A stretch of DNA of 14,573 nucleotides from a virus (lineage: Duplodnaviria; Heunggongvirae; Uroviricota; Caudoviricetes): IMG/VR virus record IMGVR_UViG_2645727715_000004, one strand, 5' to 3'. The first letter of the stretch is position 1. Every line of letters begins with the position of its first letter. The notes under the pieces were generated by a model, which saw nothing but the letters and a program-made list of their open reading frames with translations, had not been told where the DNA came from and searched no databases. The position numbers were made by a program, and so were the translations under genes. Positions 1 through 14,573 of this stretch are shown in pieces.

Positions 1-320
1 ATATCCGGAGTAATCCATGCATCGTATAGACACGAAAACCGCGCAGAAGGATAAGTTCGGCGCGGGTAAGAACGGTTTTACCCGTGGTAACCCCCAGATC
101 GGCACGCCTGCCACCGATCTGGATGATGACTACTTTGACATGTTGCAGGAGGAGCTTTGCAGCGTTGTGGAGGCGTCCGGTGCCAGCCTGGAGAAGGGGC
201 GGCACGACCAGCTACTTACCGCGCTTCGCGCGCTGCTGTTAAGCCGCAAGAATCCGTTTGGCGATATCAAATCGGATGGCACGGTGAAAACGGCTCTCGA
301 AAACCTTGGTTTGGGAGAAG
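1..320. repeat. Left arm of a 320-bp perfect inverted repeat; carries the RBS and first 101 codons of the tail-fibre gene; outer end coincides with the window edge
   Basis: Reverse complement of 2194..2513 checked base by base at both ends and over 1..114; ORF-track translations at 17..445(+) and 1697..2497(-) are identical for 101 aa. Identity ends at 320/2194. Confidence 0.95.
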
Positions 321-681
321 CGGCAAAACGGGATGTGGGTAACGGGCAAAACCAAATTCCTGATATGTCAGCGTGGGAGTGTGGGGGAGATACAACGACG
401 GGATGGAGGCGAAGCCGGATGGTTATATTGAACAATGGGGGCTAACTGGGGCCACAACAAATGAAGTTTTGATTAATTTTCCTATCCCATTTCCGACAGC
501 CGTCATTTCTATTAATGAACATGACCAGGCTCCTGTGGCAGGGAAAATGTCAGTATGGCAATTCTATAAATTGACTAACTCAAATGTCATAGCAGAGAAC
601 CTGGGATCTCTTGATAAAGGAAATCCATCCTTCAATGTTCCAACTGTCGCTGGTTGCCGCTGGTTTGCTACAGGAAGATAA
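17..681 (+). CDS. Alternative tail fibre protein (S'-like): shared 101-aa N-terminus plus a distinct C-terminal domain; reading frame interrupted by an apparent 1-nt deletion somewhere in 364..445
   Basis: ORF 17..445 shares its N-terminus with the minus-strand fibre; ORF 373..681 (frame open from 364) continues in the -1 frame with a plausible fibre-tip sequence; SD GGAG 7 nt upstream of the ATG at 17; stop TAA 679..681 immediately before the Tfa' start. Confidence 0.6.
294..319 (+). other. Candidate serine-invertase crossover site (hix/gix/cix-like), left copy
   Basis: CTCTCGAAAACC-TT-GGTTTGGGAGAA: 12-bp imperfect half-sites around a 2-bp core with the AAACC/GGTTT core of Hin/Gin/Cin/Pin sites (compare hixL TTCTTGAAAACCAAGGTTTTTGATAA, from memory). 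Lies at the inner boundary of the repeat. Confidence 0.55.
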
Positions 682-682
682 A

Positions 683-1123
683 ATGAGTAAATATCTTTAC
701 GATGCTAAAACTAATATGTTTTACCCATTTACTCTGGAAAGTCAGTATAAGGAGTCTGGGTTATGGCCTCATAATGGAGTTGAAGTTGATGAGGATATAT
801 TTATTAAGTACCTGTCCCCACCTCCAGGGAAGGTGAGAGTTGCGGGTGATGATGGCTATCCTGCATGGGATGACGTACCGCCGCTAACTCATGAAGAACA
901 ACTGTCAGAAGCGGAACGAAAAAAACAGACACTCATAAATCGAGTTAATGAATATATTAACAGTAAGCAGTGGCCAGGAAAGGCTGCTATTGGTCGTCTG
1001 AAAGGTGAGGAACTGGCGCAATATAATTCATGGCTTAATTATCTGGACGCACTGGAAATGGTTGATATTTCCAGTGCTCCAGATATTGAATGGCCTACGC
1101 CTCCGGCTGTTCAGGCCAGATGA
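683..1123 (+). CDS. Tail fibre assembly protein (Tfa/U'-like chaperone) for the alternative fibre
   Basis: ATG at 683, two nt after the fibre stop; N-terminus MSKYLYDAKTNMFYPF and C-terminal motif SAPDIEWP are typical of the enterobacterial phage Tfa family. The 611 start of the ORF track overlaps the fibre frame and is rejected. Confidence 0.75.
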   Translation: MSKYLYDAKTNMFYPFTLESQYKESGLWPHNGVEVDEDIFIKYLSPPPGKVRVAGDDGYPAWDDVPPLTHEEQLSEAERKKQTLINRVNEYINSKQWPGKAAIGRLKGEELAQYNSWLNYLDALEMVDISSAPDIEWPTPPAVQAR

Positions 1124-1697
1124 TATCCGGCGCGGTGCTGGTATCTGTTGCCGTCACCGCGTCAATGTAATCCAGCACGGCGTTAAGTCGGGTTGTTTCT
1201 GCCTGCGTCAGCTTCCGCCCGGCCTGCAATTTCAGTTGAATCAGACTGATGGAAGCCATTGCAGCATCAATCAGCGACTGGCGCTGTGCTTCTGCCGCTT
1301 CTACTGCGGCGCTATGCTGTGCCTCGGTATCCGTCACCCATTTCTCACCATCCCATTTATCGTATGGCGTTAACGGGGCGATAGTGGTTGTATTTTCAGG
1401 ATAATCACCCGGAGCTGTGATTTCTTTCGATTCTCCTGTTTCGGTGCTATAGATGATTTCACCGCGATGGTCTGGCACATATTCCCATGAGTTAAAATCT
1501 GCAGAACGGCAGATTGCATAACCAGCTTTATGTGTAACTGGTGCATCTAAACAAGAACATGCCGGGATACCGACGCCAACCGCAAGATATTCAGTTGATG
1601 TGGAAATATATTCCCGCGTTTCACCATCATAATTATAAATGGTAATGACTCCCGCTTTTATGGCAATGAGTTCGTTATTTAATACGGCTTTATTCAT
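1095..1697 (-). CDS. Tail fibre assembly protein (Tfa/U-like chaperone)
   Basis: 200-aa ORF directly downstream of the fibre gene; C-terminal motif DTSTAPDIIWPEQP resembles the conserved Tfa C-terminus of E. coli prophage TfaE/TfaR-type proteins (from memory). Confidence 0.8.
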   Translation of the reverse strand: MNKAVLNNELIAIKAGVITIYNYDGETREYISTSTEYLAVGVGIPACSCLDAPVTHKAGYAICRSADFNSWEYVPDHRGEIIYSTETGESKEITAPGDYPENTTTIAPLTPYDKWDGEKWVTDTEAQHSAAVEAAEAQRQSLIDAAMASISLIQLKLQAGRKLTQAETTRLNAVLDYIDAVTATDTSTAPDIIWPEQPEA

Positions 1698-2497
1698 CAG
1701 GCAGCCCTCACGATATAATTAAAGGCAATGTTACGAGGACGGTTTTCGTTTGCAGTTGGAACAATTCTTGAAGCATCAAGGCCAATCACTTTTGGGTAAA
1801 CAGCGCCATCTGTTCTTTCTGTCACCATACTTCTGATTAAGGAGAAATAACTATTGTTCGTTGAGGGGTTCAAAGGCACTACTGCCCCCTTAAACGAGCC
1901 TACTGATTCCCATATTGAATAATTTTCGGTGTTTACAGTCTTGAACTCACCATAGATATTACGTATGGCATCGCCCTGAGCGGATAATATTGCCCTCCCC
2001 GTATCCATACCACGTCCGTCATCCCAGCCACGAATAAACTCACCACGTAAATCAGGCAATTTATTTGTCGGGTAAGCCTTTGCCAGCTCCGGGTATTCTT
2101 CAGCAGAAAAAGCTGCTCCGTTGCATTTCAGCCAGCCTGTTGGCGGAGTGGCTGAAGGCCACGGAACAGGCACCCCAACAGGTAATGCAGAGCCTTCTCC
2201 CAAACCAAGGTTTTCGAGAGCCGTTTTCACCGTGCCATCCGATTTGATATCGCCAAACGGATTCTTGCGGCTTAACAGCAGCGCGCGAAGCGCGGTAAGT
2301 AGCTGGTCGTGCCGCCCCTTCTCCAGGCTGGCACCGGACGCCTCCACAACGCTGCAAAGCTCCTCCTGCAACATGTCAAAGTAGTCATCATCCAGATCGG
2401 TGGCAGGCGTGCCGATCTGGGGGTTACCACGGGTAAAACCGTTCTTACCCGCGCCGAACTTATCCTTCTGCGCGGTTTTCGTGTCTATACGATGCAT
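1697..2497 (-). CDS. Tail fibre protein (S-like), currently operon-linked orientation
   Basis: 266-aa ORF; constant N-terminus of 101 aa inside the repeat, then a [22 protein letters not shown] collar-like segment and C-terminal tip; start overlaps the gp48-like stop. Confidence 0.85.
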
Positions 2498-2513
2498 GGA
2501 TTACTCCGGATAT
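2194..2513. repeat. Right arm of the 320-bp inverted repeat; the operon-proximal tail-fibre 5' end plus the last 16 nt of the upstream gp48-like gene
   Basis: Exact reverse complement of 1..320; at 2514 it continues into gp48-like coding sequence that is unique in the window. Confidence 0.95.
2195..2220 (-). other. Candidate serine-invertase crossover site, right copy in inverted orientation
   Basis: Reverse complement of 2195..2220 is identical to 294..319. Confidence 0.55.
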
Positions 2514-3085
2514 TTAAAAATTACGTAGGTATGCGACGGGCAGAGTTTGTTAAGCACACATTCGACAACTGTGTCGCCCCAGATACGCAGTGCGGAATCA
2601 CAGGGATCGCCACATGTCATCCAGGTGGTGTTGGTGGCGGCTGGCATGTTGACCTGCCAGTAATACCGCCATTCAGGCGCGTTCACAGCGTCAGTACAGG
2701 CCGATGAGCAGGTGAACGTGCTTTTGTCGTATCGCGTGATGGTGGCATCTGGTCTGCCCAGGGCAGCAAGCTGTGCAAGATAAAAATCCTCGTTGATGCC
2801 GCCCGCCAGGTTAACCTTCGCATCCAGCCGTTGCTGACGCTGGCGAAGGGTCTGTGTCCCTGCGGGAATACATTCATCCGGCAGACCGCACAGACGCTCC
2901 CAGCGGTTTATCAGTTCAGTGGTGGTGCGCGGATCCAGCTCCCGCATCAGGGCATCCGCACGCTGATGAACGCGGGTTAATGACGGTGCCGCACCGGCAA
3001 TCGCCGGATCGCTGGCTGACCACGCCGGACCGGGGGGCAACAGTGCCGACAACAGACGGATGTAATCATCGTTTGTCACGTCCAT
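2501..3085 (-). CDS. Baseplate/tail protein, Mu gp48-like (P2 gpI-like family)
   Basis: 194-aa ORF in the conserved position between the J-like baseplate gene and the fibre; start overlaps the upstream gene's stop. Confidence 0.65.
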
Positions 3086-4134
3086 GAAATCGTCCCCAGT
3101 ACCGCCAGTTCATTTTTTGCAATGGAGATATTGTCTGCCGGTGCAAGCAACTGATGGCTGTATTCCCCGTTCGCACCGGAAATCGCCTCACTGATACGCG
3201 ATACCTTCAGTTCTCCCTGCGGATAACCATCACGCAGCAGGAACGAACGCAACTCCGCGGTGATGGCAGCCCGTATTTCCGGTGTGTCTGGCGTTACGCG
3301 GATATGAAAATCCACCGTATGCGCCACCGGCCTGAACACATACAAATCAGAGCCTGCCACCGGGGCCAGTGGCTCAATGTGTTGTCTTGCCGCCGTTTCC
3401 GTTGATTCTTCCGGAATGGGATTAATCAGGTCACTGCTGGCAATCATCACACCGACAGTTCCCGTTCCCATCCAGTGACGGTATGTCCATGCGCGGGTAA
3501 TGCCGGGCACTTCTTTAGCCCAGACGACATAGTCCCCGTCAGCCCCGCCCTGAGGCGTCCAGTAATACCGCTCAATGACGCGGGCGCGCCACGTTTCCAG
3601 ATCTTCAGTATCGAATCCGCCAGTCAGGGTATCTGCAACACCGGAAGACGGCAGACCATTCACCGGCGTGACCAGGATTAATGCCGTACCGTCGTCAGCG
3701 TTACCGACCGCGCCTGCACTTGAGCAAGTGATCGGCACGCGCAGGACACCACCGGAGCTGGTTGCATCAGCAGTTGCCGTGTATTGAACCAGGTCAGCGC
3801 GCTGAATCACGCTCCCGGCGGTCACCTTCAGGCCATCGCTGACACCTTCCCAGCGCATATACCCGCTGGCAGCCGTGGCCCCCTTGCGCGGACACCGTTT
3901 CATCGCAGCATGTCGCGCCAGCCAGGACGCATCGCACAGGTCAGGCAGCATGTTCATTGCCAGATAATCGATGTACCCGTAAACCGTATGCAGCGCCGCC
4001 GCATACACCTTTGCCCGCACGTCTTCATCCATGCGCCGGAGCGTGTCGCTGACGTCCAGCCTGGCGAATAAATCGTTACGGAGCATACTGATATTTTCTG
4101 CCAGCGTCGGGCGCTGAAATTCACTGTCCGCCAT
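3076..4134 (-). CDS. Baseplate J-like protein (Mu gp47-like)
   Basis: 352-aa ORF; size and position match the baseplate wedge J family in Mu-like tail modules. Confidence 0.75.
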
Positions 4135-4550
4135 GCGTTATCGCACTCCACAGATCATCAAAAGAAATCATTACCGGTCCGTCACGACGCCAGAGGGTGA
4201 TACTGTTACCCAGCTCATTAATCCCGGTGCGGCGGATATCCAGATCAATACGGGACACCACGCCGTCATCAGTCATCCATTGGAGGCATTCGCGGATATA
4301 CCCCCTTACTGTCTGCACCAGCTGATTGGTCAGTTTGCTGCGCTGAAGCAGCCACAGTCGGGAGCCGTAACGGTCATTCTGTCACCGCAGGCCAGGTATC
4401 CCCCCACCATCCCATCGGGACGTCGGCGTTGTCATCAGGCTCCGCCCGCCGCCAGGTAAACAGGGAAATCACCACGGCGCGGGTCAGCGGATCCAGCGGT
4501 GCGCTGGCGCAGGTGCGTTTACCGTTCACCGTCAGCCACAGTTCCATCAT
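4121..4550 (-). CDS. Baseplate protein, Mu gp46-like (gp25/GPW-like), interrupted by a frameshift near 4374..4382
   Basis: ATG at 4550 opens a 58-codon frame ending TGA at about 4376; the +1 frame continues (QNDRYGSRLWLLQRSKLTNQLVQTVRGY...) to the stop at 4121. Combined length about 143 aa matches the family. Confidence 0.55.
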
Positions 4551-7559: not shown

Positions 7560-9393
7560 TTACCTGCCAAAGCGCGTATAGCCAACATCATGGCTGACAT
7601 CAAAACCGCTGGATCGCGTTTCCATAACCCGCATACCCGGAGGCGAATTCACAAAAGAGACCTTGATCTCACCATCAACTTTTGGCGCAGAAGCTTTGTT
7701 AATCATGAAGGGATTCGGGCCTGTGGCATCGGAGGCGTTGTTTGATTGAGCCGGATCTACCGCCGGATAAGGTGTGTATCCCCGCGCCGGTATTCCCGTC
7801 CCATAAGCATCATAAGCACCCGCGCCCCACTGCGCAGAGTTAATGGCATCGACCGTGTCACCGGAACTGTCGGTAAACCACTCAATAATTGGCTTCAGCT
7901 TGTCCCACATATCCTGAAACCACTTAACAACCGGTCCCCAGTTATTGATCACTATCCCCAGCGGCGACCAGGCAAAAACCTTCTTAAGAAGTTCCCAGCC
8001 AGCCTCAAAATAAGGACCAATGGTTTCCCAGAGTTTCTTAAAATAAGGTCCGACAACATCCCAGTTAGTGATAATTAATCCCGCAGCCAGGCTATCGCCG
8101 TCGCAATCATGCCAATCGGCGTCATCGACATAATCCTGCTGACAATACTGATGGCACCGCCAACGCCCATCAATCCCAGTTTCAGAATCGCAAGACCGGC
8201 AGCAAGCCCGACGACGCCGCGAATAACCCGGGGATTTTCATCCGCAAACTTCGTGAATTTTTCCCCTAACTCCCCCAGCCATTGCGTGATATTTTTGGCG
8301 TCACCAGAAAATGCGCCGCCAATAGCCGCAAGGCCGTTAGTTGCGGTCCCCGTCATTGCCTCCCACAGGTTGGACAGCGTTCCAAGCTGGGCCTGAACAC
8401 GTTTATTCAGGCTGGCCTGTTTATTCATCTTCTGCTGGATCTGATCGTAGCCATCCTTTCCTTTATCGATTAGTGCATTGACCACCTGAAGGGTTTCGGC
8501 ATCATCACCAAATATTGCCTTAAGTACACCTGTTCGCTTAACGTCTGTCAGTTTTCGCAGCTTTGCCAGTTGCTTAAACATGTTATCAAGACCGCCAAAA
8601 CTCCCTTTGCCGTCAGTAAAATCGAGCTGCACTCCGAGTTTCTGGCGGGCCATGACTTTATTGACGTCCCTGATTTTCTTAACGCTTAATCCGGACTGGA
8701 TAACTTTTCGCAGGGCATTACCTGCCGACTCCCCGTTCATCCCCATCTGATCCATCATGACGCTGATAGGGGCAAGGCTCTGTGCAGCCTGAAGTCCGTC
8801 CTTATTCACCATCTTCAGAACAGAACTGGTTTTAGTGAAGAAGGACAACATGTTGGTATCGTCAACGCCCAGATAAAACGCCTTCTGGATAGTGTCGAAC
8901 AGCCCCATCATGTCTTCTGACGCCGTTCCGGTAGCATCCTGCATCTTTGCAGCAAACTCAGCAGCCGCTTCCGGTGTTTTTTTCAGTTGTACCGCAAGAT
9001 AAGCTGTCGCTTTACCCACACCACCAAGAATGTTTTCTGCCGGGATCCCTGACGCACCAGCATCTGCATCATGTTCTGGAAATCAGCCGTTGTACCGGGT
9101 AGCTGGTTACCCAGGCCAATAGCCAGTTTATTGATGTCCTGAAAGCTCTTTCCAACCTCGCCGTTCGCATCCATCATAGCGACTTTCAGCCCGGTGGCGG
9201 CGTTTTCCTGATCAGCATAAGATTTCAGGGAAAGCGTCAGACCCGCTGCCAGTCCGCCACCAAGCGCCAGCCCACCCTGTGACGCTTCTTCCGCCTGGCG
9301 TTTAAATCCCCGGATTTTCTTTTGCATTTTCGACAGCGCGGGAGAAAGCCTGTCGACACCGGTGATCAACGCCTTAAGCTCAAATTCAGCCAT
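7560..9393 (-). CDS. Tail tape measure protein, interrupted by two apparent 1-nt deletions (about 9042..9054 and 8071..8080)
   Basis: Three consecutive minus-strand ORFs (8983..9393, 8075..9019, 7560..7952) form one roughly 612-codon reading frame if one base is restored at each junction (VRQG|IPAENILGG and WLRD|LIITNW). Shows the hydrophobic segment and W-rich C-terminal repeats typical of tape measure proteins. Confidence 0.7.
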
Positions 9394-11818: not shown

Positions 11819-12379
11819 TCAGGAAGGAAGGGTTATTTCGGTGTGATGTTCGATATCGCCGTCAGGCCCGTTACCGGGATCGAGATAATCAACATCAATC
11901 GCCAGCGTTCGCAGTTCATCCAGACTGTTCAGGTCATCCTGCTGGCGGGTATCGTCTTCGGTCAGCTCGCTGATGACCGAAAAATCGAACTGATAAATCA
12001 GCTCATGACGATTCAGATCCAGCAGCGTGCCGCCGTCATAGGTAATCGGGTTACCGCACGCTTCCGGGTTCCAGCCCAGCAGGGCCTTAAAGAGCATCTG
12101 CCGGACATCGTCCACCACATCATACGAAGCAAACTGACCGCGCTCATCACGCCCGTTACTCAGTATGACAACCACGGAGAAGCCCTCTTTCAGCTCCTGC
12201 CAGTAGTCGGTCTGGCTTTTGTTTTCTCCCGGAGAATCATCACCCGGTACAACATATGCCGCCGGGAGTTTCAGCTTTCCGACCTCCGGCAGATTTTTGA
12301 ACTGGGCCGCGCCTGCAACCCGGTTTTCAAAATACGGACAGCGGGCACGCAGTGCAGCAATAACAGGCGTCAGTTTCAT
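11819..12379 (-). CDS. Putative neck / tail-completion (tail terminator-like) protein
   Basis: 186-aa ORF between the gp10-like neck gene and the sheath; function assigned by position only. Confidence 0.45.
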   Translation of the reverse strand: MKLTPVIAALRARCPYFENRVAGAAQFKNLPEVGKLKLPAAYVVPGDDSPGENKSQTDYWQELKEGFSVVVILSNGRDERGQFASYDVVDDVRQMLFKALLGWNPEACGNPITYDGGTLLDLNRHELIYQFDFSVISELTEDDTRQQDDLNSLDELRTLAIDVDYLDPGNGPDGDIEHHTEITLPS

Positions 12380-12881
12380 CTGTGTCGTCGCTCCGGCTTC
12401 AGTGATTTACGCAATTCCCGCGCCAGAAAATAGCGTGTCCAGCTGCGGTTCTTTTCAAGCGTTTCCACCATGAAGTTATTACGTGGAGCCAGTCGCCAGC
12501 CGCTGCCACCGGATGCACCACGATGATGGCTGCGACGACGCTTTGCCCCTCGCCTCACGCCATAGAACAAAAAAGCCGGATAAAAATCACCGGTGATACG
12601 GCGGTTTCCCTCTCCATTACGCTGGTTAGGGGCTATACGTGCCATAAAACCAGGGCGATGTTTACTGGCTCTGGGTACCATGTAACCAATCGAACGAGCC
12701 AGGCGTCCGGTCTGATAACCGGGGTTTTCACCCGGTGCCGACCGCGCACGGCGCATCACCAGCGACGGGCATCACGCATATGACGCTGACCAATCGTGAC
12801 AAACGCCCGCCGGACACGGGCGCGGTTAAAGCGCATCTCCGCGGGCTGCTGAAAATCAACGTGCAAAAAGGAAGTCGTCAT
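12376..12881 (-). CDS. HK97 gp10-family head-tail joining protein, interrupted by an apparent 1-nt deletion near 12757..12766
   Basis: ATG at 12881 gives MTTSFLHVDFQQPAEMRFNRARVRRAFVTIGQRHMRDARRW then stop; the -1 frame continues as VMRRARSAPGENPGYQTGRLARS... to 12376. Restoring one base makes one roughly 168-aa protein. Confidence 0.55.
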
Positions 12882-13266
12882 TGTTGCCTCCGTGACTCTG
12901 CCCACATTCGCCCAGCTCCGTACACTCCAGCAGCAGAAAGCGCCGCGCCCCGTTCAGATCGCGCTGACGTTTCACCCGGTACACACTGTCACCGCAGACC
13001 ACCTCATAATCAGCGGTGATCCCCCGGCGGTAACGAATGGTGATGTAATGGGTGATGGCGTCCCCGGTCTGCGCGGTTTCCTGCCAGGTGGTGGCACTGG
13101 TCTGGATAACCTTCGCCCATGTCCGGAACGTAACCGGGTATTGAGGCTCCACGCCAAAGTTATCCGCGGGCATATCCACCCGCTGGCGGATCAGGACGCG
13201 TTTATTCAGTTCACCGGGGTCCGGCAGAATGTAGGTTGCGCTGGTCTGCGCCTGACGAATTTTCAT
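12856..13266 (-). CDS. Head closure / head-tail adaptor protein
   Basis: 136-aa ORF following the connector gene with overlapping start/stop; size and position fit. Confidence 0.6.
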   Translation of the reverse strand: MKIRQAQTSATYILPDPGELNKRVLIRQRVDMPADNFGVEPQYPVTFRTWAKVIQTSATTWQETAQTGDAITHYITIRYRRGITADYEVVCGDSVYRVKRQRDLNGARRFLLLECTELGECGQSHGGNNDDFLFAR

Positions 13267-13838: not shown

Positions 13839-14573
13839 TTACGCCGCTGCAATCTTCAGCAGTTTGATGGCCTGCGAATCGACCAGCATCCCGCCGGTGC
13901 GCTTGGTGGTATAAAAACCGACAAACGGTTTATTGGTGTACGGGTCACGCAGAATGCGGGTGCCGATACGGTCAACGATGGTGTAACCCCGTTTGAAGTT
14001 ACCAAATGCAATGGCTTTCGCATCAGCGGCGATATCCGGCATCTGTTCGTTTTCAGCGATACCGTAACCCGCCAGAGAGGACGGCTGCCCCAGTTCCAGC
14101 CCCGGACGCCACAGATAGTTACCCTCGGTGTCTTTCAGCAGACGGATGGCAAACAGGCTGTTGTTGTTCATCATGAACTTCGCGCCAGTGCGGTGTGCCT
14201 TACGCAGCGTGTAAATCAGTTTGATAATGGCGTCTGCGGTCACCGCGGTCGCTTCGCCGGATACAATATGCTGAAGTTTGCCGAACGCCCGGACCTTATC
14301 GGTTTCATCAGTAGATTCATACGCCAGGAACCCTTTTGGCTTCTTGGTACCATCGCCGGTGGTAAAGGCAATTTCTTCCTGTTCGGCAAATTCGGTCGCC
14401 AGCTCGCTGTTGATCCAGGCCTCCACGTTGAAGAAGGCATCGTCCAGCATTTTCTGGGTAGCCTGCGGGTTGCCGTAGATTTCCCCCATGAGAGGTTCAA
14501 TCAGCTCCAGTCTGGAGGTGGCAGTCTGGGATCGCGTATCCGTTACCCCCACCCATCCGGAAGCCGTACCGCC
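13839..14573 (-). CDS. Major capsid protein, HK97 family (5'-truncated; continues beyond the right edge)
   Basis: C-terminal region shows the GNFKRGYTIVDR and RILRDPYT type motifs of HK97-fold capsid proteins; the frame stays open upstream of the listed M to base 14573. Confidence 0.85.
   Translation of the reverse strand, partial: GGTASGWVGVTDTRSQTATSRLELIEPLMGEIYGNPQATQKMLDDAFFNVEAWINSELATEFAEQEEIAFTTGDGTKKPKGFLAYESTDETDKVRAFGKLQHIVSGEATAVTADAIIKLIYTLRKAHRTGAKFMMNNNSLFAIRLLKDTEGNYLWRPGLELGQPSSLAGYGIAENEQMPDIAADAKAIAFGNFKRGYTIVDRIGTRILRDPYTNKPFVGFYTTKRTGGMLVDSQAIKLLKIAAA

Follow-up and report, generated by a model that had tools for sequence, protein, structure and literature searches.

The window analysed here, that is, the whole stretch of 14,573 nt, was recognised by exact-product look-up as the entire contig LEKZ01000190.1 of assembly GCA_001038025.1, from E. 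coli D92/09; because it is the complete contig, its base 1 is a contig end, as the first-pass annotation had allowed as a fallback. The left part of the contig holds a prophage tail-fibre locus with the following features.

1..16, plus strand: inverted copy of the 3' end of the gp48/YmfQ gene with a 3-nt spacer; outermost part of the left arm, at the contig end
17..320, plus strand: constant 5' part of the fibre gene (Sc), left copy, 304 nt; 100% identical to the reverse complement of 2194-2497
294..319, plus strand: left 26-bp Pin/Gin-type crossover site, CTCTCGAAAACC TT GGTTTGGGAGAA, with the core TT at 306-307 and an outer half of the fibre (Sc) type
321..681, plus strand: variable 3' part B of the fibre gene (SvB), gp53-like C-terminal domain (PF21882, E = 1.6e-12)
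683..1123, plus strand: tail-fibre assembly gene B (tfaB), cognate of SvB (Caudo_TAP, E = 3.7e-34)
1095..1697, minus strand: tail-fibre assembly gene A (tfaA), cognate of SvA (Caudo_TAP, E = 1.4e-33)
1697..2497, minus strand: complete tail-fibre gene in the 'A-ON' state, Sc (2194-2497) plus SvA (1697-2193) (Collar, PF07484, E = 1.6e-15)
2195..2220, minus strand: right 26-bp crossover site, same sequence as the left site, core at 2207-2208
2498..2513, minus strand: original of 1-16, i.e. the spacer with the stop and last codons of the gp48/YmfQ gene (reverse-complement match)
2501..3085, minus strand: Mu gp48/YmfQ-family baseplate gene (Pfam Phage_Mu_Gp48, E = 9.4e-27)

Rightward of the gp48/YmfQ gene, a Mu-type baseplate, tape-measure, sheath and head-tail module extends to the right contig end. 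This end, at 14573, falls inside the major capsid gene (corresponding to position 18063, within 17329-18534, of the locus of E. coli strain 1409, L020).

The region belongs to an SfI/e14-like prophage with a Mu-type tail and forms an invertible tail-fibre segment of the Pin/Gin/Hin type, which shows the hallmarks of the Din family. Its two 26-bp sites are inverted relative to one another, and both consist of 12-bp half-sites separated by the same 2-bp core; the constant 5' part of the fibre gene stands outside the segment, and inside it the SvA/tfaA pair on the minus strand mirrors the SvB/tfaB pair on the plus strand; among relatives, the segment occurs in both orientations, with the exchange at the sites. 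The same layout, with the constant 5' part outside, mirror-image 3' parts and their cognate assembly genes inside a segment of 1.9 kb, and bounding 26-bp sites with a 2-bp core, is found in the e14 P segment/PinE system of E. coli K-12, in the Mu G/Gin system and in SfI-like and P2-like switches, and relatives have pinE adjacent to the segment. In the canonical order, represented by PEC422, A32, A22, CM2010-0578/1 and phage SKA5, ymfQ is followed by Sc, by the segment itself (SvA, tfaA, tfaB', SvB') and then by pinE or another DNA invertase. The position of this adjacent serine invertase (Resolvase + HTH_7) lies beyond the contig end, and relatives carry there either an intact pinE or a remnant of 42 aa. 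Unlike the e14/Mu-type switches, the D92/09 contig has an inverted constant part where the invertase-side junction belongs. It carries both "ON" junctions, Sc-SvA and Sc-SvB, which in a simple switch lie on different molecules, and no invertase-side junction.

The inverted constant part belongs to an inverted repeat of 320 nt, the arms of which, at 1-320 and 2194-2513, are 100% complementary. Its outer tip, bases 1-16 (ATATCCGGAGTAATCC), matches the reverse complement of 2498-2513 exactly; the plus-strand sequence is A + TAT CCG GAG TAA + TCC, followed by the ATG at 17, and thus represents the last base of a Lys codon, the Tyr-Pro-Glu-stop of the gp48/YmfQ gene and the 3-nt spacer upstream of the fibre ATG. 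The first-pass annotation was therefore right that the 16 nt preceding the left ATG copy the last codons and the stop of the gp48-like gene, that the repeat passes the fibre start codon, since the arms include the end of the gp48-like gene, and that it reaches the first base of the window, since perfect complementarity begins at base 1. The second-longest inverted pair within the window is only 33 nt long at 73%, so the 320-nt repeat greatly exceeds what chance would give. Inward of 320/2194 the arms diverge at once, and the additional 300 nt point outward from the crossover site; in the left arm, this outward stretch of about 300 nt includes the fibre start codon and the stop of the upstream gene.

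The first-pass annotation had read this arrangement as a genuine duplication that may continue beyond the left end of the window. A true inverted duplication of at least 320 bp in D92/09 would have put the fibre start with its ribosome-binding region, together with the end of ymfQ, in place of the invertase-side flank; one chromosome would then carry both fibre alleles as complete genes, with the segment flanked by two identical fibre-type sites. This reading would fit the observation that both arms are error-free copies and that the perfect 320-nt repeat ends at the contig end, as with an assembler halting at a repeat boundary, and inverted repeats of hundreds of base pairs do exist at other invertible fibre segments, such as the P1 C segment and the EC958 prophages Phi1 (508 bp) and Phi2 (227 bp) (PMC4134206). 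However, these known repeats extend inward, inside the crossover site, are imperfect (77-96% in EC958) and encode a shared part of the variable region, whereas that of the D92/09 contig lies outside the site, does not extend inward, with inner sides that diverge after 320, and is 100% identical. A P1-like long inverted repeat was also considered as a class for this locus and rejected, its extension being on the outer (wrong) side of the site and fully identical.

Comparison with related loci points away from a duplication as well. A scan with the conserved inner half-site across 17 independent related loci found exactly two sites in all 17, one of the Sc (fibre) type (GGCTCTCGAAAACC TT GGTTTGGGAGAAG) and one on the invertase side (CATTTTCATAAACG or AAATATTTGAAAGG, then TT GGTTTGGGAGAAG). 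Against these 17 loci, the D92/09 contig stands alone in having two sites of the Sc type, at 294-319 and 2195-2220, and in lacking one on the invertase side; the fibre-type outer half at both of its sites is anomalous. The sequence common to both sites in the relatives amounts to 20 nt (equivalent to window 301-320/2194-2213), and we consider it highly probable that the true inverted repeat is the crossover site only, i.e. a 26-bp site of which 20 nt are shared. In all 17 loci the repeat is limited to these 20 nt and the invertase-side flank takes the place of the left arm, which argues against a genuine duplication with an outer boundary further left; so does a comparison with 5,426 complete E. 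coli genomes, of which not one covers window 1-3100 at a single location, the best matches beginning at 301. Two Sc-type sites were found in none of these 5,426 genomes and in none of the 17 related loci.

The closest relative, the draft genome GCA_965252285.1 (L008), is 99.89% identical over window 301-4079. Its similarity to the contig ends exactly at 301, and the first mismatch, at 305, adjoins the core dinucleotide 306-307; at the equivalent of window 1-300, L008 has the invertase-side flank, consisting of a 42-aa pin remnant and then a GmrSD gene. The contig thus ceases to be collinear with the canonical arrangement at the crossover site (301-305). A random fold-back or hairpin chimeric read was rejected as the primary cause of the repeat, the fold point being the natural crossover site and not an arbitrary one. 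For a true duplication, on the other hand, an inner breakpoint that matches the crossover site to the base would be a coincidence, as an unrelated duplication need not do so, and a relative with 99.9% identity has the canonical flank. We therefore regard a true duplication as very unlikely, whether the assembler stopped at the outer edge of the repeat or the repeat goes further. The first-pass annotation had proposed to decide the matter from the sequence left of base 1, a duplication being refuted if that sequence diverged at once from the reverse complement of 2514 onward. A match to this reverse complement would be expected also if the left arm came from a molecule in the flipped state, and the proposed test is therefore unable to separate a real duplication from a chimera of the two states. 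In strain A22, for example, the sequence left of the equivalent of window base 1 is the reverse complement of 2514 onward, and the flipped state is also represented by seven complete genomes, in which window 1-700 is contiguous and ymfQ lies to its left.

Inversion of the segment is directly visible among relatives. Strains A22 and A32, both with intact pinE, have collinear flanks and an inverted interior of 1.88 kb (99.8% identity, 20-nt overlap), and the same was observed between L010 and L015, which have a truncated pin (collinear flanks, 1.88-kb inverted interior, 99.8% identity, 20-nt overlap). The D92/09-type element is itself known in both states, state 1 in L008 and state 2 in the contig L022 (Logan SRR1710770_656, run SRR1710770, 1508 nt). 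The latter equals window 291-1797 with 0 mismatches apart from CCC at 414, and is closer to the window than L008, which shows 3 mismatches; SRR1710770 may stem from the D92/09 lineage or from a very close relative. L022 contains the Sc-SvB junction and starts exactly 30 nt before the 320/321 branch, as a k=31 graph would at a fork. It ends, with no obvious cause, at window 1797 within SvA.

On this basis, we propose that the 320-nt repeat is very probably an assembly chimera joining reads from both orientations of the switch, bases 1-305 being the constant flank of the flipped state, and that most likely no single DNA molecule carries the long repeat. DNA of D92/09 was obtained from an overnight LB culture, made into a 400-bp library by enzymatic shearing (Ion Shear) and emulsion PCR, sequenced on an Ion Torrent PGM (399,241 single reads, 16.5x) and assembled with the Torrent Assembler plugin into 343 contigs (PMC4588619); in 2014, this plugin ran MIRA, an overlap assembler (PMC4201551). 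The overnight culture would have held the segment in both orientations. The assembler would have run from the tail genes via the Sc-SvA junction across the segment to SvB', where the contig would have been extended by reads from flipped molecules, with SvB joined to Sc, instead of reads from the invertase flank. Reads lying wholly within Sc/ymfQ would probably have been consumed already by the right arm, and the contig would have halted about 305 nt past the crossover point, probably where the furthest-reaching junction read ended. Such an overhang would be compatible with reads of a 400-bp library, though the mean read length computed from the published figures (PMC4588619) is about 210 nt. 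If bases 1-305 are appended flipped-state flank, the repeat will necessarily extend to base 1, whatever the point at which the contig stops, and the copied Tyr-Pro-Glu-stop would be the constant flank seen again in reverse, not a second genomic copy. The anomalous copy indeed lies at the contig end and matches the constant flank to its last base. We infer, as most likely, a mixed population in the D92/09 culture and the assembler behaviour outlined above; we also infer that the invertase-side junction is carried by another LEKZ01 contig, where it would be expected to be marked by CATTTTCATAAACGTTGGTTTGGGAGAAG, the 42-aa pin remnant and the GmrSD gene.

Three considerations weigh against this reading. 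A genuine 320-nt repeat would likewise halt the assembler at its outer edge, and the coincidence of the repeat end with the contig end is therefore non-discriminating. The arms are 100% identical over 320 nt on an error-prone platform, where a thin overhang might be expected to carry an indel. Finally, because the invertase of the L008 prophage is itself cut to 42 aa, inversion in D92/09 would need an invertase acting in trans if its pin is truncated in the same way, a situation for which there are precedents.

The error-prone nature of the platform can be seen in the contig itself, which shows six single-base indels in comparison with strain 1409, the nearest complete genome, and L008, the nearest draft. 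Five of the six are homopolymer contractions (414 CCC>CC, 8089 GGG>GG, 9046 CCCC>CCC, 12762 CC>C and 13827 CCCCC>CCCC), so the contig carries uncorrected Ion Torrent errors; the sixth is a 1-nt insertion at 4383 that breaks gp46 (4121-4550). The contractions disrupt SvB, the tape-measure gene, which is split into three pieces (7560-9393), and a head-tail gene (~12377-12883), and all six indels are probably sequencing errors, not signs of prophage decay. In particular, SvB is out of frame with Sc owing to the 1-nt contraction at ~414, and restoring CCC at this position yields an Sc-SvB open reading frame of 221 aa. We also considered whether the frameshifted left fibre could be a decayed pseudogene, which is unlikely, as the CCC>CC contraction has no counterpart in L008 or in the otherwise identical L022 and four of the other five indels are contractions of the same kind. 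Exact-pattern scans of the viral_contigs and genome_contigs collections for the private SvB sequence with the CC frameshift gave 0 matches.

Other ways of obtaining a chimera can be envisaged. Template switching or annealing at the 20-nt repeat during shearing or emulsion PCR could have created a chimeric read in vitro, with no inversion in vivo. Libraries made by enzymatic shearing and emulsion PCR can produce inverted chimeras at short inverted repeats; both steps were part of the D92/09 protocol, and a single read can set the consensus at the contig end of a 16.5x assembly. However, such an event would have had to arise precisely at the natural crossover repeat, and since inversion of exactly this segment in vivo is well documented and gives an identical junction, an extra mechanism is unnecessary; we therefore consider an in-vitro origin highly improbable. 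A second possibility is that D92/09 has two prophages with an identical Sc end and SvB/tfaB, which the assembler fused, base 1 being the point at which their ymfQ sequences diverge. E. coli genomes often have several such regions, with a median of 2 and up to 10 tail-fibre places per genome and at most 5 tail-module copies, and 88 phage-related sequences have been reported for D92/09 (PMC4588619). Yet window 301-4079 is collinear at 99.9% with the single L008 element, and the aligned related prophages are similar straight across 2513/2514, with no mosaic boundary there. For both the 142-aa and the 162-aa product, a single D92/09 contig was recovered, although a collapsed repeat would look alike. 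As a fusion of two prophages also requires more coincidences, it appears improbable.

A chimera of the two switch states would be in agreement with the way in which other assemblies of such prophages behave. The short-read contigs L037 and L038 of the same prophage end exactly at ...GGTTTGGGAGAAG, and L019 begins within the crossover site. The scaffold L014 of a related prophage (GCA_029360025.1, JARAGN010000010.1, 3500-3580) has three crossover sites, with an 11-nt inverted Sc stub abutting an N-gap, and contains the gp53-like (SvB-type) cassette twice; it provides a further, independent case of an artefact from assembling mixed orientations. The breaks in L014, L019, L037 and L038 are the usual footprints of orientation heterogeneity. 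In strain EC958, about 50% of the reads across prophage tail-fibre segments were flipped and gave rise to spurious contigs, a single prophage whose invertase was truncated underwent inversion in trans, and the paper cautions against artefactual duplications (Forde et al. 2014, PMC4134206). The likeness to D92/09 extends from the kind of locus to, on the reading proposed here, the mixed-orientation culture and the resulting assembly artefacts, and the sites of the D92/09 contig are near-identical to the EC958 Phi2 sites (...ATAAACGTT GGTTTGGGGGAA) and also near the quoted consensus (PMC4134206). On the other hand, the flipped allele of EC958 was recovered as separate PacBio contigs, whereas in D92/09 a short flipped piece would be fused to the end of the main Ion Torrent contig. 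Both states of the e14 segment are likewise present together in clonal cultures, and the e14 segment can be inverted in trans by PinQ of the Qin prophage.

Unlike in e14, the invertase of the nearest relative of D92/09 is a 42-aa remnant followed by a GmrSD gene: in L008 (3842-5955), and also in L009-L018, it is cut to the N-terminal remnant of the Resolvase domain, and a GmrSD-family gene (type IV restriction-like) replaces the rest. This truncated-pin lineage is widespread in E. coli drafts (39 collection blocks), and both orientations of the fibre segment persist in it, which implies either inversion in trans or inversion predating the truncation. The L008 remnant retains the first 126 nt of pin; in known systems, the Fis-dependent recombinational enhancer lies in the 5' part of the invertase gene. 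A homology search with the 42-aa L008 remnant gave near-identical representatives only, and look-ups of the remnant entries P0004 and P0001 led to other samples, none of them D92/09. In E. coli strain 1409 (L020, 2573-5271), the IS66-family element ISCro1 separates tfaA from the fibre gene, and the annotation gives the adjacent invertase as a frameshifted, partial gene, representing another route to a disabled switch.

What underlies the repeat, namely tail-fibre inversion by a Pin-type switch that may be driven in trans, is known biology, and the main value of the present case is one of caution, in that invertible prophage tail-fibre segments are heterogeneous within ordinary cultures. Draft assemblies of such segments may contain contig breaks, stubs or a false inverted duplication that mimics two complete fibre genes, and gene counts, repeat catalogues or reports of a "novel long inverted repeat" derived from such contigs would be in error. 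If the contig does record both junctions, it would provide indirect evidence that the switch was active in D92/09 despite the truncated invertase of its nearest relative, inversion in trans already having precedents.
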